Source: Lophium mytilinum (taxonomy: Eukaryota). From it: a stretch of DNA of 64,000 bases. Of the stretch, positions 3,516 through 61,880 are shown piece by piece (position 1 is the first letter of the stretch; each line of letters starts with the position of its first letter). Below the pieces are notes generated by a model, which saw only the letters and a program-made list of their open reading frames with translations, was not told the DNA's origin and did not search any database. The position numbers and the translations under genes were made by a program. Where the stretch lies: the NCBI GenBank assembly GCA_010093605.1, contig MU004184.1, positions 444,801 through 508,800 of the forward strand. The letters run 5' to 3'.

Positions 3516-3564
3516 AAGCTTCTTCTTTGAAGACCCAGACAAGCTGAGCAGATCAATGAAAAAG
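3516..3564 (-). terminator. Conserved hairpin downstream of U4 (candidate 3'-processing/termination signal)
   Basis: 45/49 identical to 17929-17977 (downstream of U2); folds on the minus strand with compensatory changes between copies. Confidence 0.65.
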
Positions 3565-3585
3565 GTTGAGGAAAGATCCTCGAGT

Positions 3586-3773
3586 TGGGGGTTCCAAAAA
3601 TTCCCTGCCGATCCGAAGACCAGCAGGAGCGGTCAGGTTGGGTAGTTTTCAACCAGCAAAAGACACGGGCTCGGACGACTCCTCACTGCCACGCGTAATG
3701 CCCTGTGATGATTGTTAGTGAGAAGCCAGGAGAGGAAAGGATGGGGGAGGGGAGACTTGCCTTGCACTAGGAT
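3586..3773 (-). ncRNA. U4: U4 spliceosomal snRNA containing one 58-nt GC-AG intron (exon 1 3773-3761, intron 3760-3703, exon 2 3702-~3586)
   Basis: Spliced read AUCCUAGUGCAAG|GGCAUUACGCGUGGCAGUGAGGAGUCGUCCGAGCCCGUGUCUUUUGCUGGUUGAAAACU... matches the fungal U4 layout: k-turn 5' stem-loop (CAGUGAGG...CCGAG), stem I UUUGCUGGUU, 3' hairpin with C(UUCG)G, Sm site AAUUUUUGG (3602-3594). Intron reads GCAAGT...CACTAAC...CACAG. Spliced length ~130 nt; ends approximate. Confidence 0.9.
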
Positions 3774-3806
3774 GAAGAACATAACTTGGTCCGGCGGCCG
3801 AGAAGG

Positions 3807-3865
3807 TTTTATAGCTGCCAGCCAGGCGCTAATCGAGTGATGACTCATCAGCGCTAGGCAGTTTA
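3807..3865 (-). promoter_or_regulatory. snRNA promoter: TATA box plus 29-bp upstream element with TGACTCA palindrome
   Basis: GTGATGACTCATCAGCGCTAGGCAGTTTA at 3837-3865 is identical to 18344-18372; minus-strand CTATAAAA near 3807-3814, ~35-40 nt upstream of the U4 5' end. Confidence 0.75.
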
Positions 3866-3884
3866 ACAGCAGGCAGTCTAATCG

Positions 3885-3993
3885 TGCCATGGTGCCTGGG
3901 GCCGTGCGGTCTTCAACGCACGGCCCCAGGCACCATGGCAGGGTACCTACACTACAGAGGGGTGGTGCCTGGGGCCGTGCGTTGGAGACCGCA
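3885..3993. repeat. Perfect 24-bp inverted repeat plus a third inverted copy
   Basis: 3885-3908 and 3917-3940 are exact reverse complements (8-nt loop); 3964-3993 is the reverse complement of 3905-3934 with one mismatch. Confidence 0.9.
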
Positions 3994-6900
3994 GACTTCC
4001 GCCACATTCCACGACATTCTACACCAAGCACGAGCTCCCCACCAGGTTTCCATAGGCCGGCTGCGCGGAGAGTGCCGGCATCGGTGGAAGTATCACGTGA
4101 GCATCCAGCCTTTGTACCAATGCATAGGCCCTCAACCAGTACGTAAAGTAGGTGCACACATTTCTATGTTTTGTACTCCTCGACTCCATGAGCTACTGCA
4201 GCGGCTGTCTCACCTCTCTATCCATGCTTTCTTACGAAGTGAAGTGTTCTGCCTTGAGAGATTAGTTATCTAGTAAGAAAAGATGAGATATTGCTTTCAA
4301 GTCTGCTTCTGCGACCATCCTGCGCGTATCAAAGAGTGAAAAGGTGTCCGATTAGTAAAAGAGCCTCTAGATACACAGTGAAATGATGTGGTGAACTCTC
4401 TCTGCAAAGGGCTGGCGCTCCAGCAAGCAAAAACCGGTCAAGCCTGGGCACGGAAGAGCAAGCAGGAACCATGAGAGTCTAGAGGAGGCGACAGAAGATA
4501 CAAAACGCCCTCATCTTCAAGTCCACCACATATTCTAAGAGCAGCAGCGAACAATCCATCCACGGAGTAGTCTCGCTGATCTCTTGGAGACGGACCAAGG
4601 CGCATTTTTTCAATCGTGTTCTAGCAATAGCGGCTGAGTAAGGGATGAGACTTTCTCGACTATGTCTATCGCTGACATGTGTTTCGGGAAAAGATTGTGG
4701 ACTGTGTAGCGTGCTGATGAGCTAGGCAAGGCTTCGAAATACGAAAGGCAATGTTTGAGGCGGTCGGGAAAGCAAGAGATTGAGCTGTATCGCGATGCTC
4801 GACTTTATGACCTAACTGTCTTATTTCTGACAGCACTGCGATGGTGAGCTGGACTCGTGAGGCAACTTAGAACGGTAGGATATCCAACGGGTTGAGAGAT
4901 AATTGAAGGAATCAAAGCCATGATTATAGGCGTGCACACTACTAGGGAGGCCTACCTAAAGTCCGGGGGCCGTATACTAGGTCGTCAGACGCAGTTCCCG
5001 CCCGGCGTAATCCCTGCGGTCCGCGCCGAGAACTTAGCATTCTAGATCATGTTCAGCTGTTGATATATATACCGCATATCGTAATCCGGGTGCCAGGTTA
5101 GGAGCCCCCCAGCATTTGGTGTTCACGGTTTCTCGTGCATCTCGAGAGGTTCGAGAAGATACATTCAGTATCCTGGCAAACAATCGGGCAATGGAAGTCG
5201 AGAACGCGGATGACACAATCGAAGAATGATGCTATCTGAGGTCCCCAACACTCACAGTAAATATGTTTAAGATGTCGACAGCTGAACTAAAATGGTCCAA
5301 ACCTAATTCATTGTAGCTCCTACCCTCTACAAAATGTAGATTGGGTATTCACGCCTAGCGCAATGGCAGATGCTCCTTGAAACCGCAAGCGCTCCCAACC
5401 TTGCACCATCGTCCTTTCCATGATCCGGTCTTCTTCCCATGAACTACTGATTCGGGCAGAGAAAGGTCGCAACACTTCAGAAGAATCGGCCCAAATTGTC
5501 TGTCATCTTCCTCCCATTGCATCTCCGACAGCGTAACCTAAGACACCGACTCCTCCTGAAGTCATCTCTCCGGGCTTTGGGCACAGGATTGTCGTCCCTA
5601 AGAGCTGCGATTCTTCTTCAGTCTTGTCTGTGTGTAGTTGAAGTAATCAGTCGTTGAGCGTCACATCCTATTTGACCCCAAATCCACCAGGCCGAGTCTC
5701 TCCCGCGCCGTAGTAGCCCAGATGTGGTAGCCTGACGAATATTTTCAAGTCTCGCCTTCGAGCTTGAGTGTCTCCAACAGTTCGGAGCTGAGAGGGTCGT
5801 GTACCAAATCTTCGTCGATCTCGTCAACCAGGAATACAATGTCTTCCAGGGTGGCTCACTTGCGGACATCGTCGAATGGGAAAGCGGGCAAGACAAACAG
5901 GTTGTGTCAGACCACCGAAGGATGTCTTGCAGCGTGGCACTGCTGCGGAGGTCGTCGAAAGAGAAGCGAGGAAGACACGCCGTTTGTGGCAGGCCATGTC
6001 AGCACTGCCAGACTCGCGCAGAAGAGGGAGAAGTCGGCCCATGATAGTATTTGCTTTGTCGTCTCCCTCCCATTTCATCTCCGGCGGGGTTGGCCAAGGT
6101 TTGAGTTCTTCCTCGAACTACCACTTAGGGCATCATATCGTCTTCTCAGAGAGAAACACACCACGGTTCGCGAGAAGAAGGGCGCAGAGTCGGCCCTCGA
6201 TTGTCTTTACCTTGTCATCTCTCTCTAGCTTCTTTCCCGGCAGCATGGACGAGGGCGCTACATCCTCCTCGCGCAAATGCTAGGTCGTCGTTCTCGACGA
6301 AGTCTTTCTTGAAATTTGAGGCAGCTCATCATCGAGCGACCAGGCGAGCAAGACACCAAGGTTGTGCCAGGTCACAGTGGAACTCTCCGGCTCGCGCGGG
6401 AGAGCTTTGGAGGCTACGGATTGAGCTCAGCCGCCTCATTTGCCCTCCACACGTCCCGTTAGGCATCATTTGCCCTCAACTGGCGCTCATGCTATGTCCC
6501 CTGGCGTTCGGGGCCTTCGTTATTGAAACCGATTGTCGCGTATACCGGAGCCGAGCGGAGGATTGAGATTGAAGGGGGCCGAGAGGAAGGATTCGGCCTA
6601 CAGAAGCGCTGTGATGATGTCAATCGTTAGCGGAGATAACGTGAATAATATTGAAAGGGTTTCGCTTACCGAAAGCTAAAACTAAGCATTACAATGGCCA
6701 GAAAGTGTTCTCGGTGCCGGAGTAGTCGGGACCATGCTTGCCATCCAACGGTGCTGTCCCCAGTGATCTTGACTACGAAAACGACAAATCTCGTGACGTC
6801 TGCCGCGAACCACGTTCATTCACGGAGAAAGATCGTCATCAACTTGAACGATCAACTTGAATACGCGGCGTCACTTTCTCAATGAAGACGCAAAGATCGA

Positions 6901-7214
6901 GAATGTTGGCAGCACCAATTTGCGCACGGTATAGGGAGAGCGAGTAATAGAAGCTATGAGAGCGACAATTCGTGAGGATTAGACAAGCCCTACTAACTGT
7001 CTCGTCCGTCTCCCCGATCATCCTCCCTGAATTTTTGCTGTCGCTCGCAGTCTGTCGTTTCCGTGGGCCTCCTCGGTCTTTCCTTTCCGCATTGATGAAA
7101 GCCTCAACGAAGCAGTTCACGTCTCCATCGGAATGCAGGAGACACTGCATAGGCCTTCTCCGTGTCAATCAATCGGAATCAAACTTGGTCTTGAAAAATG
7201 TAAAAGAGCTACAT

Positions 7215-8000
7215 TAATTAGCGCAATGTGATCAGAAGAGATGCATTTGTGGCTCACCTTCGGCGGGCAGCTCTTCAGCTTCCTCATAGGTGAGGAGTTG
7301 CGCAGCATCCTTGCAAGTGAGGACTTGCGCAGCTTCCTTGTAGGTGAAGATTTCCGAACCTTCTGGATCAGTGGCTCGAGGCCCCGTGAGGTAGCGTAAG
7401 ATATCTCTGCCAATCTGGTAGTCGGACCGGCTCTCATGCTCGGCTAGAGACGACCTTCAAAGCATTCCAGGAATCGAATGATGTGGATTGGTGAGGTCAG
7501 GTTGAAGAAGGCATAGCCGACGTCGCAGTCTGATTTGCAGTCCATGCGCAAATACATGAAGTCAATCAGTCCTCGACAGCCGGTATCCCATAGCAAACGG
7601 AGAAGTTGTTCCTGAGGAGTGTTAGTTGATGCTACACAAGCAAGGAAGAAGGTGCTTACATCAGTCATCTTGTTTGGGATATTGCGTAACATGATGGTAG
7701 TTGGCACCCGATTTGGAATCCATCCGAAGATACATGAAGTCAAGCAGTCCTCATCCCACAGCAACCGAAGAAGTTGTTCCTGAGATTGTTAGTCGATGCT
7801 ACACAAGCAAAGAAGAAGGCGCTTACATCAGTCACTTTGTTTGGAATATCCCGCAGCATGATGGTCTTTCGCACATCGGACCCATCCAGGATGTGAGCAT
7901 AGGAGACGGTGTTATCATGAGCATTCCAGGTGCGTCCGTTTCGGTAGAACGCAATGAATCGGACGAACGAATCCTTTGCATACGACTTAGTTGTCCGGCC
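7215..8000 (-). pseudogene. Mei2-like RRM (RRM_2) pseudogene with internal duplication and premature stop
   Basis: Motifs DVRKTIMLRDIPNK / TTIMLRNIPNK, IDFMYLRMD..DVGYAFFN and AEISYA...LIQKVRKSS; introns 7826-7780 and 7659-7612; in-frame TAG at 7446-7444; no clean start found. Boundaries approximate. Confidence 0.75.
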
Positions 8001-8504
8001 GGGTCGTGCGCGTAGTCATGGTTGGGGCTTGTTGGGTGGTGAAGTGGTGCGAGCAGCCCAACGAATTTAAGGTTGTAGGTGAGGAAGCGAGCTAGGCCTG
8101 CACGTGACCGCTGTCACTGAGCAGTCCCGCCCGTGACCCGCACGCTATTGCCTTTAATGTCTACTGAGTATGGCTCTAGTAGTCGCTGCATCTTCCTCCA
8201 TATGTTTCGATACACTGGATGATTTTAAGAAGATTAAAAGAATCAAATTCACGAAGTCACACTCCTTCAAGATTCACGCAGGTAGGCATCGAAGCCTACT
8301 TCAAGACTTTTAGAGCGAACATATGAAATATTCACCAGGACAGATGCTTCTAAGAACTAATCTTTACCACTCTCTCCTTCAAATTGTCTGGCCCCTTTAC
8401 CCTACGTGGCACGAACGCTTCTCATTTCAACTATATCTTCATTTTTCCTTTCTCAGCTATTATTGTCCGCACCATCCCGACAGCATCTCTAACATCCCGG
8501 CGAA

Positions 8505-9031
8505 ATGGCGTCCTGCCACGATCCATCGAGCTCCCATACCAGCCCCGATCGCCGCGCCCGCGCCATGTTGGCACCACGCCGGCAAACCCTGGGAGAGCTC
8601 GCTAAATCAATGAGCGTAGCCAAGACCATCCCTCTTCCACCCTTCGACGACGTAAGCCCCCAAAGCCCCTACTCTTGTCTAGCAATTGTTAATAGCACCA
8701 ATAGGCGGGCATCGTTGTCGCCCCACCGGTTCCCATCATCTCTACGGTTACCGTCAATGCGGCCTCTCCCACCGACCTCATCGCGCCCGTTGTTGCGCCG
8801 GCCGTGCGAACTCCGGCCATCACTCGGGAGGAGATCAACCTCGTAGCTGGTACGTTATGTTCCTCTCTTCTCTCTTTTGGGACGATAGCTGACTTGTGTG
8901 CTTTGTATGTAGCCCCTACCCTTGCCACGGTCTCGGCGCCGTCGCCTCGCCGTCGTGAGAGAGCTGGCTCATTGCGCCGCCTGCGTGACTGGTTGGCGCG
9001 GGTTTTCCGTGGGAAGAGTAGAGAGGAGTAA
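8505..9031 (+). CDS. Small hypothetical protein, 3 exons (introns ~8652-8704 and 8850-8912)
   Basis: GTAAGC...TAG and GTACGT...GCTGAC...TAG introns join an open frame of ~135 aa; no recognisable domain. Confidence 0.4.
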
Positions 9032-9256
9032 CACCGGGGGTGCTCTGCTGCGTGTTGTGTCTGTAGGCGTAATGTGAAAGAGACCGTGGGCGGCCTTGGG
9101 GTTTTAGGTAGTAATGAGAATGAATCCTGTCTTATCGAGCATTTGATCTGCTTCTGACTGTGAAGTCTGACTGCTTGTGGCTGGTGCGCTGGATTGGAAG
9201 GTAGATCTATACGCTTTGACAATGCTGGAGTTTCTTTGGGTGGACAGAAGTGTTTG

Positions 9257-9339
9257 GAGGAAGATACAATGCCTAACCAGGTTGAGGAAGATCCAATGCC
9301 TAACCAGGTTGAGGAAGATCCAATGCCTAACCAGGTTGA
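9257..9339. repeat. 27-bp tandem repeat x3
   Basis: GAGGAAGAT(A/C)CAATGCCTAACCAGGTT three times. Confidence 0.9.
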
Positions 9340-11019
9340 AAAACTATGGTTTGATTATTGGATTTCTTTCTCGATATATGCATTGGATCCTCCCATGTTG
9401 AAGCGATGAGTTTAGGCCCGTACTGGCAAGGCGCTAGCAGTATCTGAAACTCATTAATGTGCCAATTGTGATGAACCGAAACGTGTTTGTCCAATGCTGA
9501 TAGCTCTTACGGATGCCTCGTGACATACTGAATATGATTCAGCGACATATCCGGATGGTTGACGTATACTAGGGCTTCGAAGTCAGAGCTTAGAATGAAA
9601 TCTTTAAGACTCCTACAACTTCCCGCAATTGAAAGGGCGGGAATCTGCTTAATCAACATGAGTGCGAGGTTCTCGATTCCCGGGTAGATGTTCTTGGATT
9701 CTCGCTTCCATGTTTGAACCCACATAGGTTTGTACAGGACGGCCCTCAAGCCCAGTACATGAAGCGTGCCCAGAGAAAAGGGCAATTGCATGACTAAACA
9801 GTGGATGGAGAGTTGTTCCGGGAGCTGAATTGCCGAAAGTTCGATGTGTGTTGCCACCATAACGGGGACTACTTGGACCGTCGCAGCCTTGCTCGACTCT
9901 GCAGCCACGATGAACCACATCCAGCGGAAGCTGGGGGAGCATTTTGAGGAGCAGTCAAGTTCCCTGACCGTTCATAGCGGAATGGCCCCGCACTTCCATT
10001 GACAACAATACTCTTTCAGGTCATTGTCGATTGCTTGTCCGATTTCGATAGCGCTCTCTTTCATGCCTTTGGTCTGCCATTCTTCATCCCCCTCCTCCTT
10101 CAACATCAGCTTAGTCGTGTCCTCTTTATCGGTCGCGGCTCGGTAAAGACTTTGACGGTGTGATCTTATACTTAACCTTTGTCAGGTTCCAGAGAAACAT
10201 TGGGATTGTGAAGAGTCCGCTAGAGAACTGGGAACACCCACGACGACGGATCCCATTGCACTCAACCTCTTCATCTTCCCCATCCTCGTACGGATGTTTT
10301 CCGTTCCAAATCGTTCTCGCCACGTCAGAACGGTCGAAGCGGGGGGTGACAGAGACCGCAGAGAAAAGCATGCGGCGAAGAGGCAACCCAAAGTATCTTC
10401 CGAGAGGCTTCTATGTTTGAGCAGCATCAGCTGATCGAGGATGGAATCGGTTCGGTTGGGAGGAGAAGGAGAAGGGGGCGTGTTTTTCTGCGGTTTCTGG
10501 AGGAGGAACTTTCCAAGCGATCGGAAAGTAGACTTGCGAATTTTTGCTATGCATGCCTGTATTGTAGAGACGCGTCAGAGATGGAAAGGAGATGAGGAGG
10601 GGACATGAAACGGTGCTGATGACCTCTTGTTTATCCTGGAGCTCATGTTATCGAGATTTCGCACTCGGCTGGACTAGGAGGGAATCTTGCCGATGAGGAC
10701 GTTCTGCTGTCTCGGTCAAGACGCGTCGCCCCAATGCCGTACTCTGAAAACGCGTCGGCTCGGCCGGCTGGTGGATGCCCACTTGAGGCCAACCTGGATT
10801 GCTTCATCATGAGGCTGATGTTGTTTGTTCATTGTGTCCCACCCGGGCAGCAACACTGCAAGTCATGTCCCAAGGACTTGTCGCAGCTGCGCTGGGCCAG
10901 CACTTCCAGCATAGCGGCGTAGTATAATTGTAGGATAGCAGCGTCATATGGTCGCAGAATAGCAGCGCCTTCGTCGTATCCTAACAGCATGCCACTACAG
11001 CTGCATCTCAGAGAGATTT

Positions 11020-11066
11020 CTTCTTCTTCGACGACCCAGACAAGCTGAGTGGATCGATGAAAAAGG
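11020..11066 (-). terminator. Third copy of the snRNA downstream hairpin
   Basis: 42/47 identical to the U4 copy; substitutions largely keep pairing. Confidence 0.6.
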
Positions 11067-11067
11067 T

Positions 11068-11151
11068 GTGTGTCACCCGAGGTAGTGCAATATGGGCAAC
11101 GCAGTGTGGTTTTAACGATTGGGTGCCCGCTCACTAGGCATCACAGGTTAT
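11068..11151 (-). ncRNA. Candidate ~85-nt U2-related small RNA, or truncated U2 relic, retaining stem-loop IV
   Basis: CUGCGUUGCCCAUAUUGCACUACCUCGGGUGACAC aligns to SL IV of the U2 at 18 kb and still folds. It is followed by the third copy of the snRNA downstream hairpin (11020-11066), with TGACGTCA ~75 nt upstream. Confidence 0.4.
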
Positions 11152-12149
11152 GAAGGGGGAGAAATGGTTCGAGGCGTGGGCTGCTTGAGTATTTCAAGAG
11201 TTCTTCAGCGAGCCATGGCATTGGATGACGTCACCACAGCAACGCCAGGGCAGGTTCGTGTTCACTCAAAGGTGAACCAAGATGCGGCGCCAGGATGGAG
11301 GAGTTCCGGCCGAGTTATCGGTCATGGAAGCTCCTCAATGGGAGGTCATGTCCAGGCATTGATATACGGAAACATGAGCCTTTGAGCGGCAATTCAAGTA
11401 TTTAGATTACGAACAACTCTGTAGCATAGCTTCTTACTCTGGAACATCATCCTAGCGCATCGAAGTAGGTAACAATAGCTCTATCTGTAGAGACTTAGCT
11501 AAATGTCATCTCTCAGTTGGCGAAACGTGCGAAGCATAGCGGAGCCTAGATGAAAGAAAGGTTCGCAACCTCAATTTGAAGCACGAACCCTCAGCTTTCT
11601 TGAACGGATGCCCCAAGATGCAAATATATCACTTGCCAAGTCCTGGGACACAGTGAGGCGTTGGGAGAGTGATCAATCCACTATTGGCTTTGCACTAAGA
11701 ACTTGGAAAGAATGGCTCTTTTTCCCTGGAGACCTTATGATGAAAACTCCCAGTCCGGATCCCAACTCCTAGCTTGTTTGGATAAAACTTGAACAAGACG
11801 AGAAATATTCGAAATATATAGGAAACAACGCTCCCTTCCGTTTACTTCGAACCCCTAAATCTCTCTGTCTCCTACCTCTTCGAACATATATCCCTGAAAT
11901 GTACACACAGCGTAGCCATGTTGCCGCCTAGCATGACGCGGAGTGAGGATTGGATGGGAAAGATATTTTTCCCGCCATAATTGTTGCCCGGTGGGGATCC
12001 CGAAGCTTCGTTGGCGGGGCGTGCAGACAGTGCCTTGGATGCTGGGATTGAGGTCAGCCAGGGCCTGAGATGCTTTAGCGAAGGGGGTGCAGAGCTGTAT
12101 ACCGTCGTCTGGGTGACCCTTATGCGTTCATGGTTTGTTCCAATGTTGT

Positions 12150-13340
12150 TCGTGCGTGCTTTCCGAGGAGGTGTAGAGGCGCTTCAGGCGGTGTCCTGAA
12201 GTTGTCCACAAGTCGCTTGTGGGAACGGAATAATGGGTACTGGATTAGTACTTTGAGAAGAGGCTTAGGTGCTGTCGATATGGGGTATCGTCTGGAGCCT
12301 CCCGACGAGCTTTCAGACCAAGAAAAGTGAATGATAGAATCTTTTGCGAACATACCAGGGCACTCCAAACGGTGCCTTATAAGTTACAAGACTGAACGGA
12401 GCCCCTCTTTAGATCTACATGCCACCCAACATGTTGCCGATCACGAAAATCGTTACGCCATGTTTGGGGTAGCGGTGGTCGTAAAACGTCGTCTCGAATG
12501 CTTCGTATACATCATTGTTGCTTCAAAGCCGTTGATTATATTTCATTGTGAATGTGCCAATGACCTTCAAACGGTGGCATAAAAGTCCGCATAAGGTTCT
12601 ATTAGACTCTTCATACTAGGTGATAAGTTAGCAAGAGCGAGATAATCTAGAGCGGGATTGCTATAGTGTTAGTGAGCACCGTCTGAGTTGGCTCCGCGAG
12701 TTCACCTTTTCTCCAAAACGGACCATGCAGACATGTTGCCAATATTCCGAGGTGTCTCAGACGGTGCTATAAAAGTGTACACAAGCATCTTGTAGACCGT
12801 GAGATGTCCTCACTTCGGGAACTAGGATTGAATAGAGAGGTTGTCGGTGTAGAGCTGTAGAGCATTGTCTTCTGAAGCCTGTCACATTTAAGAATCTGTC
12901 AAAGCAAATGCTACGCGCTATTTGAGGACCAATAGGATCTCCTCAAACGGTGGCATTAAGTGTGCAGAAACGTCCCCTAGAACGTCAGTATTCGGTACTC
13001 GCGAGAGCGATCTGGTTTGGGAGCTGTTAGTGTAGAGCCATATACCATCGTCTGAAGCAGCCTGACGTATCTTCGGGTCTGGTCAAAGCGATTGCTACAC
13101 TATCTTTGAGAGCATATAGTGGCACCTCAGACGGTATCATAGAGGTGTGCGTGGGTCCTTCCTAGGCCCGAATATCTAATGCTCACGAGAGCCAGTCGTC
13201 TTACGACGCGTTAGTGTAGAGCAGTAGACCACTGTCTGAAGTAGCTCAACGCGCTTCCAGGTCGGTCAAAGCCACTGTTACATTTCTTCAAGAATTCATA
13301 GCGGCGCTTCAGACGGCGGCATAGATGTGTGCACAAGCTT
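12150..13340. repeat. Degenerate tandem array, ~185-bp period, ~7 units
   Basis: Core C(C/T)TCA(G/A)ACGG recurs at ~12182, 12363, 12565, 12756, 12941, 13126, 13307 with similar flanks. Confidence 0.7.
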
Positions 13341-13535
13341 GTGAGGAGAGACAGATCTTGATTCTTATAAAATTACAAAAGAAAACAGGCCGTATATCCA
13401 AGCCCGAAGCCAATTATGAGAGGAGGGAGGTGGGAATTGCGCCGTGCGCGTTGATGGTGCCGCTACATAGTTTAGATTAGCAAGAGCTGTCAGTTCCATT
13501 GGATTGTGCCTCATACATGATGCCGAAGTCAGCGC

Positions 13536-13703
13536 TTAGTCCTCGAAGTCCTCCTCGTCCTCCGACAGTGGTGGTATCATGGTGTAGGGGTGGCGAGCCC
13601 CCTCCGGCGCCGTGAGCGCCCGGTACAGCTGCTTCAGGATTGGAATCCCGGTGACGACGACGAAGATGATGAGGAGGATCATTGATGGGGTGTCGAGGGC
13701 CAT
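13536..13703 (-). CDS. Small single-TM protein (55 aa) with acidic tail
   Basis: MALDTPSMILLIIFVVVTGIPILKQLYR...EDEEDFED; GC3-rich codons; 9-bp AACCTACAA-type repeats immediately upstream. Confidence 0.5.
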   Translation of the reverse strand: MALDTPSMILLIIFVVVTGIPILKQLYRALTAPEGARHPYTMIPPLSEDEEDFED

Positions 13704-14548
13704 GACGCGTAGTGTGGTGTTGATTCGCGCGTTGTAGGTTTTGTAGGTTTTGTGGGCTTTGCAGGCTTTGTTTGATTTGTAGGTGTTGTAGGTTTTGTAG
13801 GCTTTGCTGGATGTCTTCGGTGGGGTGAGAGGGAAAGGTTTGTGGTTGCAGCGCACGGTCTGTTGAGGTGACGGAAGGTGAACACGTGATGGAGACACGA
13901 TAAGTTCCCCGGCGATGACAGGTATGCATGAAAGACCTCTTGAAAACTTGTGCGTGTTATTCTACCGCGGTCTGAAGCCCCTCGATATACTTTTGCGATT
14001 CTACAATAGCGGAAAGACGCCACTCTGCACACACAGGAAGCTTGCCAGGCCACCTCAGACACCATAATTTAGGTCTACCGAAATCAAAGATTGCCGTATC
14101 TACGTCAAAACCTTCATCTGAGTCTGCCCCTATTACCCAAGCTCATCTCTCCTTCAGCGTCATACATATCTTCGACTTCAACGCCAATCCCTTCTCTTCC
14201 GCCCGTAGGCTGCAACGAGGAAGACGTTCTACTCTCCTCAGATGTACAAGATTAGACTATCCCCAAAGCAAACTTTCCAACTTTTCAGAATCTTTTCGCT
14301 CAATCAAACTCTCTTTTGAGCAATTTTCTACTCTCTCAATTTGATAAGCTCTGACTATCCACAGAGCACCATCAAATGCCGCAAAACGATGACTATATGT
14401 TCACAATATCAACGCGTTCACATTCGAGAACATTCTTCGAAGCAGCAGAAACACCGTTCCCAATTTCAACTCCCCAGTTCAAGCTCCAGAGGGTCAACTA
14501 TCTTCATACCGTCTGAGCGTCCACAAGCTACTAACCAAACCCCCAAAT

Positions 14549-14885
14549 CTACTCCTCCTCCTCTCCCATCTCCACCCCCTCCAACCACTTCTCCACCTTC
14601 TCAATCACCGCCTGCTTCCAGGCCGGCAGCTCCAGCAGCGGCGCCGCCGCCAGCAGCGGCGCCACCGCATGCAACACGTCCAGCCTCTCATACCACGTCA
14701 GCTCCATTGCCTCTCTGCGGAGCGTGTCGGGGGTCGAGGGGGTCTTCCAGGCGGCCTCGTGGGCGGCAAGGGGGAGAGGTTCTACAGGAGGTTATCAGCG
14801 CCATTCTTTTACATGAAGGTTCGAGGGCGATTTTACGTTTAGTTTGCTTGCGTGCGAACAGATGGCGCAAGATTGGGAGCTTCAT
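14549..14885 (-). CDS. Small hypothetical protein (~93 aa), intron ~14836-14782
   Basis: Splicing GTAAAA...GCTGAT...TAG gives MKLPILRHLFARKQTKQPLPL...WKQAVIEKVEKWLEGVEMGEEEE; strong coding-like GC3 bias. Confidence 0.45.
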
Positions 14886-17800
14886 GATCGCGTTTTGGGA
14901 GGCGGGTGGTGGCGTTCAGGTGGCTTTGACGTTGGTTTGATGATGGAAGTTTGAAGCTGATGTAGCGCTAGTTTTGTTTCTTGAGGATGTTTAAGGACGG
15001 ACGCTGACCTGAAATTGGACGCGAAAGGTGTTTATGTAGTGGAAAGTGTTACGCTACGAGAGGTGAAGGTGGTAGGCGAGACGGGCGCAAAAGTGAAGCC
15101 AATGGCAGTTCTTCTTCTATTTTGCGGCAAGGGTGGGACGCGGTGAAGGTACGAAGGGCCTAGAAAGGACGAACAAAATGTTTTCAATTGTCTGCTATTG
15201 TCGAAAAACCTCGCAATACTATAGAGATCTAAATGACAGGAAACTTCGGCGTTTTGTACGCATTAGTCTGCCACTGCTGGGAGGACCATAAGTTGTTTTG
15301 AAGATAGAGAAAGTACGGTACTTAAGTATTTGTACCTAGCAGTAATTTTGCTTTATGGCCTCCTCTCTCTAGAAACTACATCTACAAGAACATGCCCGCT
15401 AACAAGCTCAAGTCTCCTGCTACTCTCGCTGAAGTGCGAGCGTCTTCGGACCTCGTGTAACTAGGCTTGAGACTCAGTAAATAAGCTCTCGGAGCCTAAG
15501 GTTGGAGCTGCTAGGTGACTGTCGTTGGTCGGCTTGCTATGGTGGTCGGTCACTTCGCGTGGACAGGCTCGAGGCGACCCGTAGGAGGTAGAAGGCTGTT
15601 ACGGCGGCTAGCTCATCCATCGTCTTGGGCTCACCACGGTCACCCAACGGAAATCTTGTCTCATTCATGAGACTTGTTATCCAGCTCGTGGTTTGAGAAT
15701 GCTCCTTCTGTCATCACTGGGTTGTTCGTGGGCCTAGCGGCTTATTTAGATTAGTGTTCGTGAAATAAATTTGCGGGACTTTGTGGACTTTGAGGATACT
15801 TGACAGAGCACATAGCAGGGGGTTTCTACCCGGCATAGCGTTTAGCAAGCTAGATGTTCTGAGATAACCGCTTGCTGTAGATACTTCGTTGTCTTCTGAC
15901 TGCCGTAGGTCTCAATTATTTCCTTCTGCTCCAAGAAAATGGGTAGCGTGTGCCTCTGAACAAATTAGCTAGGCGATGAGCAATTTCGGTGCCGTCGTTA
16001 ACTGGATAAGTTCGTCATACTCTTTCGTTTATAGGCAGCATAGGAGTTGACCGTGTCTCTTTTTAAATGCGATTTGACGTTCTCGGAAATGTACCACTTG
16101 AGCTACATCCGTATATACCCCGGATGTCTTTTTCCGTTGATTTCATCCAACATGGAATGCCGTCTTACTTTAGGCTCAAACGAGATCAACTCCCGTGGCC
16201 CCAGCAACGACATTCCAGACTTGCTAGGACGCGTGAGTGCGACCAATATGAAAGGACAGCTGCGGATGCTACGGCATTATTCCCTCTCCGACACCAATCT
16301 CAAGTACCGCAAGACTCCCATTTAATCTTGGGTAGCTTGCAGACCGCGCGATCTTTGTAAGAGCTTGGAGAAAGGAATATGAAGCCTTGACAGGAAGAAT
16401 GGTCTCCGCGGAATCTCTAACCATCATGCCATTTCGAAACATCTAATTCCTGTCTTCAAGCTGTTCGTGCACCTGGCGCCCTCAATTGCCAGACCCATGA
16501 GCGAGCACTCAACCCGCGAGGGCTGGGCGTGGTCCTTCTCCTGGTGTGGCTCCAAAGACTCCATTCCCTGCCCATTGATCAGTGGGTCTTCCACTTCTTC
16601 TGGGATATGCCTAAAGTCTACCTCCCACGTCTTCGGGCAACAGAAGTTCTCTCTTGTGTCCGCCGCATCGATCTTGGAACACCTTCTTGAGCCGGTATTA
16701 TGATGCGATGAGACGGGGTCGACGCTAGTGGCTACGAGACCAACGAGAGGTATCCAGGCAGGCCCGACTTGGGGTTTGACTCCGACGAGAGATAGCTTGT
16801 GTGAAGGAGCCGGATATGAAGGCACGGTTGGAGTTCTGGCGGGAAAGGCGTCTCTTGAAGATGGAGCGGTGGGGCATGCCGATTGCAGTATGGCGTCGTG
16901 CTTCGACACCGCAACAGAGTCCGCAAATATGAGTCCAAACGTTCCCGTTCTATAGATATGACCCGGGCAAGCGATATGCGGTGGTGGTCTACGAAACCTC
17001 GACGGTGAGGCCTAAGGACGTGGCAATAAAGTCCTGGGGCCGTCAGCTCACAAATTCCTCCTTTCGCTTCTCCCACAGTCGCCCTGGTCCACTAGATATT
17101 ATCGAGAAGCTCGATGGGGGTATCGAAAGTGTACAGGTATAATGGTACAGCTTCGGGACGTGGCGAAGGATTCGAAAGAGGTGTAAAATGACTTCGAGGC
17201 TAGGACGACGCGCTTCCTGAATTCGGCGAAAAGTCTCGATATGCGAAGCTGGGCAGCGAAAATTCATCGTGATCTTTCTGCGACACTCTGGATGCGCGCG
17301 AAGATGGAGAGGTGACGGTGCTTGTTGGCTTCTAGAGGGTCGATTGGATGGGAGGATTAGGCCAATGAGACCGACGCCAGTAACGACTTGAAGACTTTGG
17401 TATTCTGATTGAGAACAAACACAAAGAATGGAAGGCTCTTACCTAGCCGCTGGGATGGATGCGCTGAAGCTGCTGATGCCAAAGAAGCTCTGGTAGCGAC
17501 GGACACCACATTCCTCAACACGGTGCCCCACGTGTCCATGACGGAGAGACAGAGATCTATCAAGGTTGTCTGCGAGAAGACAATGTCTGTTTGCTCGTTG
17601 GGGTATTCGTCATTCTCGTAGGTGTTGTGAGACCTTTCAGGCGACAAGCAGCGAGGATGGCATGTGAGATGCTTCAACTCCAAGCAGTCTCTGGAAGACC
17701 GCTTCAGCCTCCTTCTCCCACTCCTACGCGAGACAGGACACTTGTTGAAAAACAATGCAAGCAAGAAGATGGATGAAGGGAATAGAGATGACGCGACATG

Positions 17801-17928
17801 CCCAGCCTGTGCAGTGCGGACGCGTTCAGGGTTCTCGCTCAGGACGTGACGCGTCACAGCAACATCACAACACCACAACATTCACATCACGAAAGCAAGA
17901 GGCACGTCGTAGGATCGCCAAGAGAGAA

Positions 17929-17977
17929 AAGCTTCTTCTTCGAAGACCCGGACAAGCCGAGCAGTTCAATGAAAAAG
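17929..17977 (-). terminator. Conserved hairpin downstream of U2
   Basis: Homologous to 3516-3564, with a compensatory A-U to G-C pair. Confidence 0.65.
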
Positions 17978-17991
17978 AGGTGAACAAAATG

Positions 17992-18286
17992 TTCGCGTCG
18001 GCCCGAGGCAGTGCAATACGAGCGACACAGTGCCCCTGAACATAGGCAAGCCCAGCGGCTCAGGGGACAGTTTCCAAAGATTGAGAAATCGAGGGGAGGC
18101 CCCGTAGGACCATTTCCAGCGATTAAACTGAAAAACACCTGTAAGATTGTTAGTGATGGAAGCAAACAGGATAGGAACAGGGAACTTACCAATACTACAC
18201 TTGATCTAAGCCAAAAGGCACTGTGAAGATTGTTAGTCATGATGTGGAAAGGATGGGGGTGGAGTTGGAACTTACAAGAGAGCTGA
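17992..18286 (-). ncRNA. U2: U2 spliceosomal snRNA containing two GT-AG introns (18275-18221, 55 nt; 18189-18139, 51 nt)
   Basis: Spliced read AGCUCUCUU|UGCCUUUUGGCUUAGAUCAAGUGUAGUAUUG|GUGUUUUUCAGUUUAAUCGCUGGAAA... shows SL I, branch-recognition GUAGUA, SL IIa, IIb with UACG loop, IIc complement CGAUU, Sm-like AAUCUUUGG, SL III and SL IV loop GUAUUGCACU. ~190 nt spliced; ends approximate. Confidence 0.92.
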
Positions 18287-18310: not shown

Positions 18311-18372
18311 GTATTTATTGCTGGCGAACGACGCTAGCTTGGCGTGATGACTCATCAGCGCTAGGCAGTTTA
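18311..18372 (-). promoter_or_regulatory. snRNA promoter: TATA-like box plus 29-bp upstream element
   Basis: 18344-18372 identical to 3837-3865; minus-strand AATAAATA ~30 nt upstream of the U2 5' end. Confidence 0.75.
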
Positions 18373-20589: not shown

Positions 20590-22290
20590 ATGCAATGGGA
20601 ATCAGGCTGCTTTTTGACCCGCTACACACCCGCTGGCCGAGCTACTCTTCACATCGGTATCAAGCGATTAAGATCTGAAACTAGAGAATCCTATATCCGA
20701 GGGTGGGTTACCTTGAATTTCGTCCTGGTTGATCCCCGACACACAAGTTTAGGCACTTTTTACAACCGCTTAGGGTCCCTTAACTTGCTTTTGAATTTTA
20801 GAAATAATGTCAAGGCTAACGTAGTAAATGTTAGGCTGCGATTCACCCAGCTGCACACCTACTAGCTAAACCACCCTTCACGCCGGTATCAATTAATCAA
20901 GATTAGAAGCCGGTGCATCTTTTTCCGAGTCCTAAAACTGGCGTCCTCGTACACTCTTGAGACACACCTTTGGACACTCCTTACAATTGCTCGAGGTGCC
21001 TTAGTTGGCTTGTAAACTTCTAGATACGATCTAAAAGCTGACGTAGTAATATCAGACTGCTCTTCAACCAGCCGCACACCTACTAGCTAAACCACCCTTC
21101 AAGCTGGAAGTCTACGGAGATGTGTTCCATACTCTTGGGCTCCCCATGGAAGGTTTCGAATAGTTAAGCGCGATGTCAAGTTCTCGACGACGTAGACCAG
21201 ACTACTCTTTTCCTAAATACCTTCCAACTAGCTAGGCCACTCCTCTCGGTGTTATCCAGCAAGCAAGATTAAAACCGAAGGCGAATAGTAATAAAATAGG
21301 CTCGTGTGTCTAGTCTACGCACCTCCCTATTACACTCCTTAGGGTGCCCCCACAAGATTTAGAGCATCCCGGCGCGAAGTATAGTTCTAGATAGTAAAAA
21401 TTAGAGTACTCTTTTCCTCACTACCTCCCAACTAGCTAAGCAACACCTCGTGGTAGTGTTAATCGGGCAAGAATAAAAGTAAATATAAGTAAGTCTATAT
21501 ACTTAGATATATGCACCCCCCTTTTATACTCTCTAAGGTGCCCCCACATCATTCAAGACATCTAGGCGTAGTATTAAGTCCCAGGCCGCGAAAATTAGAC
21601 TCCTCTTTTTCTAAATACATTCTACCTAGCTAAGCTCCACTTTATAGTAGCGTTAGGGAGGCAAAAATGAAACTAAATAGTAGCAATTCCGTAAGTCTAG
21701 TCGCTATACCTCCCTTTTCTCATTCCCCGGGGGTCCCCACAAACTTCACATAACTAGGCACGATGTCAAGACCCACGGCATACATGTTAGACTACCCTTT
21801 TCCGCACTACCGCCTCTTTTATTAAGCTCCTCCAGCCATTGGCGTCAAGACAGTAAGATAGACGTTAAATAGTAGTAATTCCGTATATCTAATTCTATGC
21901 ACCCCCAATTCCAACTCTCCAGCGTACTTCTATACAGTTTAAAATATCCAGGCACCATGTTAAGTGCTAGACAGCTTAAACCAGACTACCCTTTTCCTTT
22001 CTACCTATAAAGTAGCTAAGTTACTCCTACTAGCGGTATTAAGTGCGCAAATTAAACGCCGAACAGTAGTAATCCGGTATGTTTATTCCACGCAACCCTA
22101 TTCCCTACTCCCCGGGGCCCCCCTACAAGGTCTGCCGCATCTAGGCACGACGTTAAACCCCACGGCTTACATATTAGACTACTCTTTAACCACCTGCCTA
22201 TTGACTGTCTGGGCCACTCCCTACTGCGGCATCAAGTGCGCAAGATCGAAACCAAACAGTGCCAAACTTGGACGTCTAGACACATAGCCT
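20590..22290. repeat. Degenerate tandem array, ~194-bp period (longer ~220-bp units at the left end)
   Basis: (T/C)(T/C)AGACTAC(T/C)CTTTT at ~21199, 21401, 21595, 21787, 21981, 22174; CACACCTACTAGCTAAACCACCCTTCA exact at ~20855 and ~21076; TpA-rich. Confidence 0.75.
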
Positions 22291-41270: not shown

Positions 41271-44029
41271 TCGGGAGCCGCAACAGTCGGCAAGAAGCGA
41301 CGTGGTACGATGGCTAATTTCGAGTCTTCGAAACTCTCAAGGTATCTCGCCGCTTCATGTGCCTGTTCTCCGGGATTTCTCTGTAGCACCTGGTCCTTCT
41401 TTCCCTTTGGTGTTGTTCTTTCGGGCTCTTGTTCTTCATAGACTTCCTACTTAGAGCTGTTTCTCATTTCTGTACTTCTATTAGCTTCTCCAATGCCCCC
41501 TTCAGACTAATTAGATTCATCTCATTCACCTGCTCTACCACACAAGTCTTCCGCCAGATTCTACCACATTCCACCGCCCGTGACTCAAGTGCTCCAGCAC
41601 CTGCACCTCTCCCACTCGAAATATATAACACCCCCCCCTTTCTCTCTTCCCCTCCTCGACAGAGTTGGCAACCAGGAGCTTCAAACACTCCATGCGACCC
41701 AGACATGGCCAGCGGTGGAAAAAACAGCTATTCGAACGAGTCATGGACCGAAACAAGGCGAAAAATGCTGCAATGAGAGCGTGGGACTAGCAAAAACTAG
41801 CACCCATCGCCCTGATGTGGCGAGCAGGGCCCAATCCGTGGTATCGTTGGCGATGGTAGTTCAAAACAGGCTGTAATCACCTCTGCTGGAGGAGGACCGT
41901 GGTGGATCGACATCGATCATCGCGCGAATCCATGGGCTGGAGTGGAGTAGGGTGGCGGTTGGATCAAGAGCGGTGATGATGGAGGTGAGTATCATGGAAT
42001 AGTGCACGTATGCGTGGGGAGCTCGCGAAGCTGGCCTTCGGGATGATTGGAAGCGCTTTTAGTCCTCTTTCAGAGAAGTGGGTGATGTTCATCACCACCG
42101 CCCGCTGGCGTACCACTACCGCTCCTCCACACCACGGCCATGTGGCGCGTAGTTCATATATGTTGATCCCACAGCCGACCATGGGATGTCGACGGCCTCG
42201 TTTTTACTCCTCCACCCCACTCCCACATAGTACTCTACTCTGAATACTGTTGTTCCCGCCGCCAAAAATGAGATATTTATGACTTCGTTTTTGATGTCCC
42301 AGTCCTTCTCCATGTGCTTTCCTAAGCGTACATTTTGCAATCTCTCGAATGCTCCACCGCCTCCTCTCCATTGTTATGAATTGAGGGACTTTTGCAACCC
42401 ACCCATTCTCCTCGTCCAAGCCTTGCAAGAAAGAACCAAGGGTCTGAGAGCGAGGGGTTTTATATTGCAGTTTCGAAGCGAATATCGAGGTCACATGGCA
42501 CCCGTGACTCGGTAAACGAGCACGGGATATCAGTGGAGGCTGCCAGATTCCATTTTCGTCCGCGAGCCACTGCCAAAGCCTCACTGCACGCCTTGAGTCT
42601 TCCCCAGCGACGTAATCCTTACGCTTCCACCTCCTTCGCCGGACGCCTTCTCTGCTTTTAGCCGCCCAGTCACGTGAACCCCCAGCGGCCCTGGCTCTCA
42701 AAACTTCCAGCCTCTGGTATAATAGCGCCCTCTTGCTTGCTTTGAAAATTTCCAGTGCAGAAGAAGGAGCCCAGTATGGAGTGAGGAAAAGCTGAAGCTC
42801 CATTCTAGGATGATCTAGGAAAGCGGGGGCAAAAGGAGTCTTCCTCTTCCGTCATGTGTGTAGCAACATCCCTTTAGGGGCATGATGAGGTGGACGATCA
42901 ACCAAACTGTTGAGGAGGTACCATGGGAGTTTCGTCAATCAACTTTGCCAGTCCATAAGCAGCATAGGATGGTGCGGGCAGCTATGGTGCGGATGTGCAC
43001 TACTGCATGAAAACGTGGTGAAGACCATGAAGGAAGTCTAGTTGTGCTCTACCTCATCCCCAGGAGGCAACGCATAGCTTTGGAATTTAGTATGAGAATC
43101 AACACGGTAGAAATTAAACTACCTTTTGATAGACTATCGACCTGCCAGTTAGAACAGCCCCAACGTTGTTCTCGACTATGCAAAAGCGTAGTTACACACG
43201 CCTATATTCCCGAGACTTGATATCACCGCCTTGAATTCCAATAATAAAGCCAATGCAGTAGAAACTAGACTGCTTTTTGATTACTTACCTTCCTGCTAGC
43301 TAAGCTACCCCTAGCATCGTTATCAACTACGAAAAAGTATAAACACACACTCCCATATCCCCCACACCCAGATTCTTCGCCTTGAAATTTAACACAAAAC
43401 CCAACACCATCGAAACTACGCTCCCTTATACCAACCTTCCCACCTCCCACCTAAACCATCCCCGACACCGCCATCATCCACCAGAAGTAGACCCAATACT
43501 GCACCTCACCACCCCCTCCCCCTTTCCACTCCCACCGCAAGATCTTAAACCCGACCACCACCACCACGCCCTTATATCACTCTCCCATCATTTTCTTGGT
43601 CTCTAGATGTTAACTCCACCACATCCCACCCCTCCCCGCCGCTCTCCCGCACAGCCATCGTATGGAAGGATGCTTTTTTTTGCTCTGCAAGACACCTGCC
43701 ATGATTTTGGCGTCTTGGACTGTTGTACACGCAGTCAACATAAGACACGTCAGCGATGGCTGTCAACTACCACCCTGCTGTAGCGCTGTTCCGCCCCCGA
43801 AATTCCTGTTTCGAGATGAGAGCGCGAAGGAAGAGGGGTTATATACCTGCCCGGGAATTTGAAATGGTAGGAGGTTGGTTGGTCACGGGGGAGGCACGTG
43901 GGTTTCTGGTGTGTTTCGGGGGGGGCGCGTGGGAGGTCTCCTGACGGTGGTGAAGAGCTGGGGAATAATATCTCGCACCTGGCTTCATCTACAACCTGGG
44001 ATATTCTGCATCATGTCTAAAGCTCTTAC

Positions 44030-45720
44030 GCCCTGCAGGAGGATTCCAGACGGCGCCGAAGGGGTACTAATACACCGTCTCTAGACCCAACCTCATTAAA
44101 GTCCTAGGGAGCACGACATTACATGCTAAATCTTTTTACAATATAGGAGGACCCCGAACGGTGCTAAAGAGATATGGAAATGACCTCTGAAAGCTAGCTT
44201 TGGTTACGGTGTAGAAAACTCAGCATTACAAGGGGATTTCTTTCGCTTCATAGGGGTACTCCAGACGGCGCTGAAGAGTCCTGGGCATGACCTCCTAAAT
44301 CTATCTTCAGTTACCATCTAACGAATATAGCATTGTACTTAGAGTTCTTCTACTGTATAGGAGGACCCCGAACCGCGCCGAAGAGCTATAAATTTGATAT
44401 CCTTCCTCTAGCTTCGTCTCCGCACCTATAACCGTTACATTGCAAATTACTCTACCAGAGTATATAGAAGTCCTCCAGACCTCGGTAGAACGCTTTGAAT
44501 ACTATAGTAGTATTACTAACTTAAATTAGAAAGTCCAGTTGTTTACTTTATGCCCGGATGAAGAGTGCAGTAAGAGAGGACTCCAAACGGCGCCGAAGAG
44601 CTGTAAACACCACATCTTTCCGCTAGCTTTCCTTTTACCCTCCTAGGAGTTTTATATCGTGTGGAACTCCAGCAAAGTACATTAGAGTACTCCAGACGCT
44701 GGCAGAAGGCTGTAAACTCCCGAGTTTCAACCTTAATATAATCTGAAGAGTCTCAGTCTTTACATTGCATCCAAAAATAAATCGCAGGGTAGGAGGACTC
44801 CAAACACCGGCGAAGAGCTATTGACACTGCATGTTTTCCCCTAGCTTTATAGACACTCCCAGGTTCTCCAAATTCGCATGCCAATCCGCTATAGTACACG
44901 GAAGTGCTCTAGACGCTGGTAGAAGAGTGTCAACGTCCCAGTTCCGATCCTAGCACAATCTAAAGCGTCGAAATCTCTACATCGTGTTTCATCTTAAGCT
45001 ACACTAGAGGGCCACCTCAGACGGTGTCGAAGCGCTACTCAGAAGCTAGAAAATACCGTGTAATACAAGAACCTGTAGTCGCTGTATAAGGTAGTCTGGT
45101 CTAAGATGTCAAGCTCTTAACATCCCATCTTATCTTTTCATGGCGAGCTAGAGGACATCAGCCAGTAGCGAACAACGGGCAGAAAGAGGGAGGTAAGGTC
45201 TTTTCTATAGGGTACTTGCTAGTACGATACGCGGTCTAATTTTAGAGGTTAAGTTCTTGACATCCTGTTCTAACTTCGTAGAGCAGGCCAGAGAACTTTA
45301 GACGGTAGAGTGAGGCGTGCAGAGCGTAAGATTATACGGTCTAGTCTGTGGAGTTAGTGGTAGTGTATTACGTGGTCTCATTCAAGATGTTAAGCTCTTG
45401 ACATCCCGTTTTAATTGTTTAGAGCGAGCTAGAGGACTTCAGACGGTGGGATAGGGCAGGTAAAACGTTAGTATGTCGCGTAGTCCAGTCTCTAATACCT
45501 AGTTCTTTACATCCTATTTTATCGTTTTATAGCGTGCTAGAGGACTTCAGACGGTAGCATAGGACGTGCAGAACGCGAATATATGCTATCTATTCTAAGG
45601 AGGTTGGTCCGTCACGTGGCTTGATATCCGATGTCTAATATATGACATCCTATCCTAACTTTCTATAGTATGTCAGGATACTTCAGACGGTATCAAGACG
45701 TACGCAAAACGCCATAACAC
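44030..45720. repeat. Degenerate tandem array: ~108-bp units alternating as ~216-bp dimers, then 110-140-bp units
   Basis: CCAGACGGCGCCGAAG-like core at ~44046, 44154, 44261, 44368, 44475, 44583, 44692, 44800, 44909, 45017; GACATCC...CTTCAGACGGT units from ~45110 to 45700. Confidence 0.8.
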
Positions 45721-60083: not shown

Positions 60084-60399
60084 GCTGCAGGTTTGAAGTA
60101 GACGTTCTAGAAATGACATCCTGTTTTCAATTTCCTCGCCCAGTCAAACCACCTCTTACGCCTGCATTACTACAGCAGCGGCATTGCAATATAACAGCAG
60201 TATGCACACTACCCTCCCTCTATCTCCCAATCTATAGGCTCCAGGAATAACATACCTATTTCACGTATGACAGTTTTTGACATGCTATTATCGATTTCCC
60301 CGCCCAGCCAAGCCACTTCTTACGCCAGCATCGATATGGCAAGCGATATTACAGCAGAGCATAGTATGCACCCTACCCTCTTCCTACGCCCTAATATCC

Positions 60400-61650: not shown

Positions 61651-61880
61651 AACACACAGCACGAGCCATCACGATACGAAACACATATTCAAGAGAGAGA
61701 GAGAAACCGATTGATTCTCCGAAGGAACTACAGCTGAACCTTCATACCCGGGCCCGACGATTAGTCATTTGCCCACCCTAACACCAAACCCGAAGCCGAC
61801 CCAATGCACCAACCAATGCCGCCAAAACAGACCCAGAAAGCTCCCAGATCCCAGACAGTCAGAAGAAGTCTCAGAAGTCA

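Follow-up and report, generated by a model that had tools for sequence, protein, structure and literature searches.

A covarying RNA hairpin behind the U1, U2 and U4 genes of a Lophium mytilinum genome and behind U2 genes of other fungi

The 64,000-nucleotide stretch of Lophium mytilinum DNA studied here (contig MU004184.1, positions 444,801 to 508,800 of the forward strand; hereafter the window, numbered from its first letter) carries three copies of a conserved hairpin on its minus strand, one behind a gene for the small nuclear RNA (snRNA) U4, one behind a U2 gene and one behind a U2 remnant. Here, we report that this hairpin is a real RNA element, find it behind all U1, U2 and U4 genes that we list in the surveyed genome, and describe its counterparts behind U2 genes of other fungi, where the base of the stem is conserved and the loop is not. 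We consider it probable, by analogy with the yeasts, that the hairpin is a Pac1-type cut-and-terminate signal, a 3'-processing and termination element of snRNA genes transcribed by RNA polymerase II (Pol II).

A covarying hairpin at snRNA 3' ends

A first-pass annotation of the window had placed three copies of the hairpin on the minus strand, and their paired regions lie where it had put them:

3519..3564, minus strand: hairpin after U4 (sequence, fold, covariance-model match)
11020..11065, minus strand: hairpin after a U2 3' remnant (sequence, fold, covariance-model match)
17932..17977, minus strand: hairpin after U2 (sequence, fold, covariance-model match)

Computed folds of all three copies agree with the stems and the CUUGU loop that had been drawn: a 7-base-pair (bp) base, an A.A mismatch, a middle stem of 4-5 bp (4 bp in the copy behind U4), a small internal loop and a 6-bp apical stem. 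Taken singly, each is a modest fold (-14.2, -17.8 and -16.3 kcal/mol for the hairpins at 3519, 11020 and 17932, with z of -1.7, -3.2 and -2.5). A covariance model trained on 47 equal-length genome copies, the window copies among them, matches just these three sites across the 64 kb. Four pairs differ among the three copies, and the description of their differences as mostly compensatory holds in part: pair 21:29 is a clean double change (GC/AU), whereas pairs 11:38 and 17:33 retain pairing chiefly through one-sided changes and pair 14:35 is a broken U.U in the U4-associated copy. The annotation had also spoken of three small-RNA loci; U4 and U2 are recognisable, but the middle copy stands behind a U2 3' remnant only.

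Three copies are by themselves insufficient to establish covariation; the 44 distinct copies of the genome suffice. A BLAST search of the 43.4-Mb genome returned at least 18 copies, a lower bound that missed two of the window copies, while a half-pattern search found 47 places against none in a reversed control, 44 of them full hairpins. A looser half pattern was discarded, having given 174 matches and 86 in the reversed control (six candidates from it were checked; five were hairpins and L113 was none). In the alignment of 44 distinct copies 96.5% of cells are paired and 8 of 18 pairs change on both sides; the covariation score was reached by none of 500 shuffles, and controls with slid partners drop to 50-61%. 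Apical pairs, on which the search did not select, are split between CG (22) and GC (22) at one position and between GC (27) and AU (16) at another. The base and loop were fixed by the search pattern, so their invariance in the genome set is partly selection. The snRNA strand out-folds its complement in 44/44 copies (-14.9 vs -6.2 kcal/mol), an advantage expected because of the conserved G.U pairs. Together, the strong covariation supports a hairpin that folds in RNA.

We listed snRNA genes independently with Rfam models, which gave lower bounds of at least 16 U1 (every one below the Rfam cut-off), 9 U2, 6 U4, 3 U5, 21 U6 and 1 U3. The hairpin is present on the same strand after 31/31 of the U1 (16), U2 (9) and U4 (6) genes; 24 of these copies belong to the training set, and the remaining seven score 42-62 bits. 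It begins 3-19 nucleotides (nt) past stem-loop IV of U2, and 24-39 nt past the Sm site of U1 and U4. The hairpin model, which covers this motif and no other hairpins, matched 0/3 U5, 0/21 U6 and 0/1 U3 genes, nor did it match any of the seven scanned loci, out of eight, that have the promoter motif described below and no snRNA. A B-box-like GTTCGA stands downstream of 17/21 U6 and 2/3 U5 genes and of 0/31 U1, U2 and U4 genes, so that the hairpin split tracks the likely polymerase, U3 excepted. The annotation's suggestion that a genome scan would find hairpins after U1, U5 and small nucleolar RNAs (snoRNAs) was thus right for U1 (16/16) and wrong for U5 and for U3, the sole snoRNA examined; the scan ties the hairpin to snRNA 3' ends. 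Over all retrieved loci we gathered 56 distinct copies, of which 45 are preceded by part of an snRNA or an Sm-like site and 11 by nothing recognisable; 25 stand behind something other than an Rfam-called U1, U2 or U4. A TAGCGY box and a TATA-like box lie upstream of 35/56 copies against 0/48 downstream controls, and no family among the curated Rfam covariance models covers any hairpin examined.

The same hairpin lies behind U2 genes of other fungi. Scanning metagenomes with a U2 5' stretch gave at least 118 loci; 99 of these extended 290 nt downstream, and 91 were distinct; the counts in this and the next paragraph are among the matches listed. The hairpin model matched 60 of the 91 at E ≤ 0.01 and nine more weakly, every match lying on the same strand as U2 at 173-240 nt from the U2 motif, and 22 loci gave no match. 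These 22 comprise 16 members of one clade, three U2 5' fragments and three yeast-like U2 genes. The hairpin of the 16-member clade is a variant, UUUC-A-U / A-R-GGAAA, built in the same way, and two of the yeast-like loci have a hairpin with a UGGU (NGNN) tetraloop in the corresponding position. With the three fragments removed, the U2 bodies have a median identity of 63% and fall into 36 clusters at 85%, of which 29 have a strong match, four a weak one only and three none. The annotation had confined its signal to this lineage, a limit that does not survive these loci, and its link between hairpin and small-RNA 3' ends extends to them. The hairpin is probably general in filamentous ascomycetes, the group to which we infer that the metagenome loci belong. 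Separately, the three U2 5' fragments (L131, L139, L169) are fused to a different, GC-rich hairpin, and two of their contigs have a second U2 match close by on the opposite strand.

Two cross-species alignments, fitted to the model and including a few low-scoring off-target rows, show double changes at 14 and 13 of 18 pairs. Among the 60 strong matches, any given position of UUUUC and GAAGA is conserved in 59-60, A is the 5' base of the mismatch in 56, the mismatch encloses 29-31 nt in 55 and the loop has 4-5 nt in 47 (overall range 3-8 nt). The middle and apical stems are free to vary in sequence between species, and a CUUG or CUUGU loop occurs in 22 of the 69 matching loci. Across species the loop changes, and it is the base (UUUUC-A-U / A-R-GAAGA, flanking an A.R mismatch) and the length that stay constant. 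The aligned copies of this genome, which were selected on their loop, have a CUUGY pentaloop; with the variable loops found elsewhere, this upholds the annotation's remark that the element lacks an Rnt1-type tetraloop.

How the hairpin may be read

In the mechanism that we favour, Pol II would transcribe through the snRNA into its flank, where the nascent RNA would fold into the hairpin of about 46 nt, a fold backed by the covariation. A nuclear class I RNase III (the Rnt1/Pac1 orthologue) would then cut twice, with a stagger, no more than about 1 nt from the A.R mismatch and, judging by the geometry, free a stem-loop of about 32-34 nt. Trimming would take the upstream piece back to the edge of the Sm core or of stem-loop IV, and 5'-3' degradation of the downstream piece would, on the S. 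pombe model, end transcription. The proposal of a shared 3'-processing and termination signal had come with the annotation; the link to 3' ends now stands on the 31 U1, U2 and U4 genes and on the U2 genes of other fungi, and the RNase III role is what we infer.

Several observations are consistent with such an enzyme. The genome has one Rnt1-like gene (G000:C7, locus L236), which encodes an RNase III domain and a double-stranded-RNA-binding domain with signature motifs intact and whose protein has yeast RNase III structures as its top matches (E 4e-24); its catalytic motifs are likewise intact. The other RNase III-family genes are two Dicers and one coding for an MRPL3-like protein. A. fumigatus is likewise said to possess an intact rnt1 (PMC10275271). 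Pac1 of S. pombe binds snU1, 2, 4 and 5, though not U6, and terminates them, and predicted hairpins with stems of 23-32 nt and loops of 3-5 nt lie directly downstream of the snRNAs (PMC8421224). Pac1 requires about 20 bp and tolerates bulges and loops, and conservation of its substrates peaks near the cuts (PMC12508059). Rnt1 cuts 14 and 16 nt from an NGNN loop to give a 34-nt product (PMC5027489), and its noncoding RNA substrates are preferentially unpaired near the cut (PMC4334505). In the hairpin described here, staggered cleavage immediately beneath the mismatch would give 14+5+15 = 34 nt, an arithmetic that starts from a predicted cut site; across species, the 29-31 nt enclosed, the mismatch and a 2-nt overhang likewise add up to about 34 nt, the size of the Rnt1 product. 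The distance from mismatch base to loop (13-14 nt on the 5' side, 12-13 nt on the 3' side) is compatible with the 14/16 rule for that predicted cut.

Other points weigh against an RNase III reading. U3 and the 3' external transcribed spacer (ETS) of ribosomal DNA (rDNA) are Pac1 substrates in S. pombe (PMC8421224), and this motif's model finds no copy after U3 or in the rDNA unit including its 3' ETS, which folds no better than shuffles (z -0.5). With 18 pairs, or about 20 counting mismatches, the hairpin sits at the 20-bp Pac1 minimum and below the 23-32 nt of S. pombe. Because Pac1 tolerates loop sequence and bulges, the near-invariant base exceeds its known needs, and the 14/16 ruler derives from a tetraloop enzyme and need not apply here. 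Moreover, the cross-species evidence comes from U2 only, and the conservation of the core is inflated because the alignments were fitted to, and the matches selected by, the model.

The main rival is a 3'-end RNA signal with another reader, such as an endonuclease, a Dicer, the cleavage/polyadenylation machinery or a Seb1/Nrd1-like factor, in which the cut would fall at the hairpin base or upstream of it and the hairpin would be a structured counterpart of the animal 3' box. The near-invariant base, with its conserved U.G pair and A.R mismatch, suggests sequence-specific reading; Sm-class genes alone are marked, U3 and the 3' ETS having no motif; the next 120 nt are rich in U and G (33% T, 29% G); and the two Dicer genes are at hand. 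We nevertheless hold another reader to be unlikely, since the position, size and loop range of the hairpin agree with the RNase III hairpins of both model yeasts, NGNN hairpins occupy the same position at the two yeast-like loci, and no alternative factor was identified, in a search that did not extend to Integrator subunits. We find it very improbable that a stable, 3'-extended snRNA retains the hairpin, or that the hairpin gives a small RNA of its own, for instance as a Dicer substrate. Its strong conservation of sequence and structure would fit, and a T. rubrum U1 cDNA cluster of 196 nt exceeds the U1 body (PMC3890542), by an extra part that might be the hairpin; yet A. fumigatus U1 measures 130-132 nt by cDNA and northern analysis (PMC2377427), which leaves no room for a 46-nt extension if the hairpin is assumed there, and the middle and apical stems vary freely in sequence between species.

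Two further explanations fare slightly worse. It is very unlikely that the T-run of the 5' foot is a Pol III terminator, or that the element acts as DNA, the hairpin remaining untranscribed. A run of at least five T does stand at the 3' end of 9/9 U2 and 5/6 U4 genes, but of only 1/16 U1 genes; the downstream B-box-like motif occurs at none of the 31, and U4 has an internal T5 Sm site. The compensatory changes also extend beyond the T-run, and the conserved G.U pairs function on the RNA strand only. Least credible of all is a functionless passenger, a repeat or duplicated 3' flank spread with the expansion of the snRNA genes. The families are expanded (16 U1, 9 U2, 6 U4 and 21 U6, as lower bounds), several U2 copies have identical hairpins (44 distinct among 47 rows), and the middle window copy and at least one other sit behind fragments, so that some copies probably are passengers. 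For the family as a whole this reading is largely refuted: the element is common to non-homologous RNAs, its covariation is kept over U2 genes of 63% median identity, and we found no 12-nt flanking (target-site) duplication and no A8 or poly(A) tail in 56 copies, which also disposes of the dispersed repeat that the annotation had named as the threat to its proposal. A Pac1-type signal thus remains the reading that we prefer.

Gene structures, variant units and other features

Rfam matches in the window are U4 at 3712-3578 (80.4 bits) and U2 at 18232-17986 (66 bits). The genes and their surroundings are laid out as follows:

3578..3702, minus strand: U4 exon 2 (Rfam U4, 80.4 bits; edges from sequence; Sm site 3602-3594)
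3703..3760, minus strand: predicted GC-AG intron of U4 (sequence: GCAAGT donor, CTAAC branch site, CAG acceptor)
3761..3773, minus strand: predicted U4 exon 1 (sequence; other U4 copies have an identical 5' end)
3838..3861, minus strand: promoter-like motif upstream of U4 (shared with the U2 gene; TATA-like box near 3813-3806)
11067..11107, minus strand: U2 stem-loop IV-like remnant (BLAST to U2 copies; AUUGCAC loop)
17986..18138, minus strand: U2 exon 3 (Rfam U2, 66 bits; sequence; Sm-like AAUCUUUGG; variant beside the branch-point helix)
18139..18189, minus strand: predicted GT-AG intron 2 of U2 (sequence; 63-nt insert in the Rfam alignment; splicing predicted)
18190..18220, minus strand: U2 exon 2 (stem I and branch-point recognition sequence; sequence, Rfam)
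18221..18275, minus strand: predicted GT-AG intron 1 of U2 (sequence; same-place intron in most other U2 copies of the genome)
18276..18284, minus strand: predicted U2 exon 1 (sequence)
18345..18368, minus strand: promoter-like motif upstream of U2 (shared with the U4 gene)
20598-22251, 43267-45573, 60114-61651 and 12174-13337: degenerate tandem repeats (sequence)

Introns at the U4 intron site or nearby also occur in other U4 copies; splicing of the window U4 is predicted. The 24-base upstream motif is identical in U4 and U2, with two exact matches in the window and none in 100 shuffles, and at up to 3 mismatches it has 24 matches genome-wide and none in a reversed control. At the U2 loci of other fungi the commonest upstream 7-mer, among the matches listed, is AGCTCTC (61/78), which supports the predicted exon 1 of the window U2. 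A nested palindrome with arms of 24 and 31 nt (3870-3994) adjoins the upstream side of the U4 promoter motif; matches to microRNA families, which fall on a palindrome, are sub-threshold and were rejected.

The window U2 departs from the usual sequence right after the branch-point recognition region (18138-18220) and has a C within its Sm site; it may be a variant U2. At the middle copy, about 40 nt before the hairpin resemble U2 stem-loop IV, with about 80% identity over 87-90 nt including the hairpin, and we found no Rfam match, U2 body upstream, promoter motif or Sm site at this locus, which may be a decayed gene or a diverged variant. A 213-nt contig of the putative RNA run X1 matching 17933-18064 (the U2 3' half and hairpin) was considered and set aside, as it speaks for a related copy and not for transcription.

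The snRNA families have expanded on contigs C1, C4, C23, C16 and C19, many copies having spliceosomal-type introns; the first stretches of C1, C4 and C23 contain clusters of many U2, U4, U6 and variant copies. Second hairpins stand 190-420 nt beyond a first at L109:681-723, L112:679-726 and L002:1240-1287, the last behind a decayed U1; these are possibly back-up signals or remnants. Three TATA-led chimeras (L003, L012 and L015, at G000:C1:421.5k, C15:390.2k and C1:469.9k) join a foreign 5' half to a U2-type Sm site and/or stem-loops III-IV and then the hairpin, and are candidate variant snRNAs. Six U1-like units (L005, L045, L108, L111, L255, L257) keep an intact Sm site and hairpin and are altered at the 5' end, where U1 base-pairs with the 5' splice site. 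In five promoter-led small RNA units without an Rfam match (L017, L031, L046, L049, L103), an Sm-like site directly precedes the hairpin; two of them, L031 and L049, contain intron-like segments. A family of units of about 400 nt (L028, L060, L063, L105, L023, L102) has a 5'-splice-site-like GGTACGT and repeated CACGGC/GGCGAC; the hairpin ends four members, none was seen at L023, and L102 has three tandem repeats before its hairpin. Four loci (L027, L035, L038 and L039) pair the snRNA promoter motif with a downstream RNA in which branch-site-plus-AG units (ACTAACTAG) recur and which also has a GATGATGAT tract; none has the hairpin.

The three U5 genes (L073, L074, L075) have neither the Pol II motif nor the hairpin, and L075 has no Sm site; two of the three carry a 3' B-box-like motif and a T-run, as in U6. 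These features suggest that U5 is transcribed by Pol III in this genome. PMC5738166, considered as a report of Pol III U5 in Neurospora, was dropped: snRNA and Pol III are absent from its text.

Elsewhere in the window, 7350-8010 holds two duplicated exon-intron units resembling a broken RRM-protein gene, presumably Mei2-like; a run X1 contig related to this duplication has one 178-nt unit fewer. The tandem repeats listed above belong to degenerate families with periods of about 107, 140, 164 and 193 nt in the AT-richer stretches. In the rDNA unit (G000:C21), about 1 kb separates the large-subunit gene from a 5S rRNA gene downstream of it (5S at L239:9640-9759), and a group I intron-like match directly follows the small-subunit match.

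Comparison with known systems

The motif is undescribed in the open-access literature that we searched; subscription papers, older Pac1 work and most supplements fell outside that scope, and a prior description is possible. It is not among the 17 structures tabulated in the excerpts of one fungal structure screen (PMC8216456) or those shown in excerpts of another (PMC5640933), nor do the excerpted parts of the small-RNA surveys PMC2377427 and PMC3890542 or of the snoRNA survey PMC5824354 describe it. We found no paper on snRNA 3'-end formation in filamentous fungi in the literature searched, and the published models that we came across are two yeasts.

A wider and more tentative proposal, which we put forward as possible though doubtful, is that in filamentous ascomycetes one RNA element of defined sequence serves as the universal 3' box of the Pol II Sm-class snRNAs; that its reader, either an RNase III whose specificity is new or some partner yet to be named, recognises the base (UUUUC-A-U / A-R-GAAGA) and not the loop; and that the element marks a whole transcript class, including about 25 further units in this genome, while U5 has moved to Pol III. 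If so, the further units would include the U2 chimeras with their foreign 5' halves, the U1-like RNAs whose 5' ends are changed, and RNAs outside all known families. The motif offers a precisely defined substrate and a predicted cut site that can be put to the test, and it points to recognition of the stem base as a third way in which RNase III enzymes read their substrates. The hairpin model also picks out, sharply, small Pol II RNA genes that lack annotation, and in laboratory fungi the element might end small-RNA expression constructs as a short terminator without polyadenylation.

Like the Pac1 hairpins of S. pombe, the element lies directly behind Pol II snRNAs on the sense strand and not after U6, and has a small 3-5-nt loop without a tetraloop rule, in a genome with a class I RNase III gene. 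It differs in being shorter (18 pairs against stems of 23-32 nt; PMC8421224), in being one sequence-defined motif common to U1, U2 and U4, whereas the excerpts of that paper name no shared sequence for S. pombe, and in its absence here from U5, U3 and the rDNA 3' ETS. With the snRNA substrates of S. cerevisiae Rnt1 it shares its position, a predicted product of about 34 nt (PMC5027489), unpaired bases near the predicted cut and a mid-stem internal loop (PMC4334505). Unlike the G2 substrates of Rnt1, it has no NGNN tetraloop and is conserved at the base rather than the loop. The working principle is already known from yeasts, and the base-conserved motif is new to the literature that we searched. 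The metazoan snRNA 3' box, read by Integrator, is a similar case, one element for Pol II snRNAs shortly past the mature end with a shared promoter element upstream; there the element is a linear sequence, whereas here it is a covarying hairpin.

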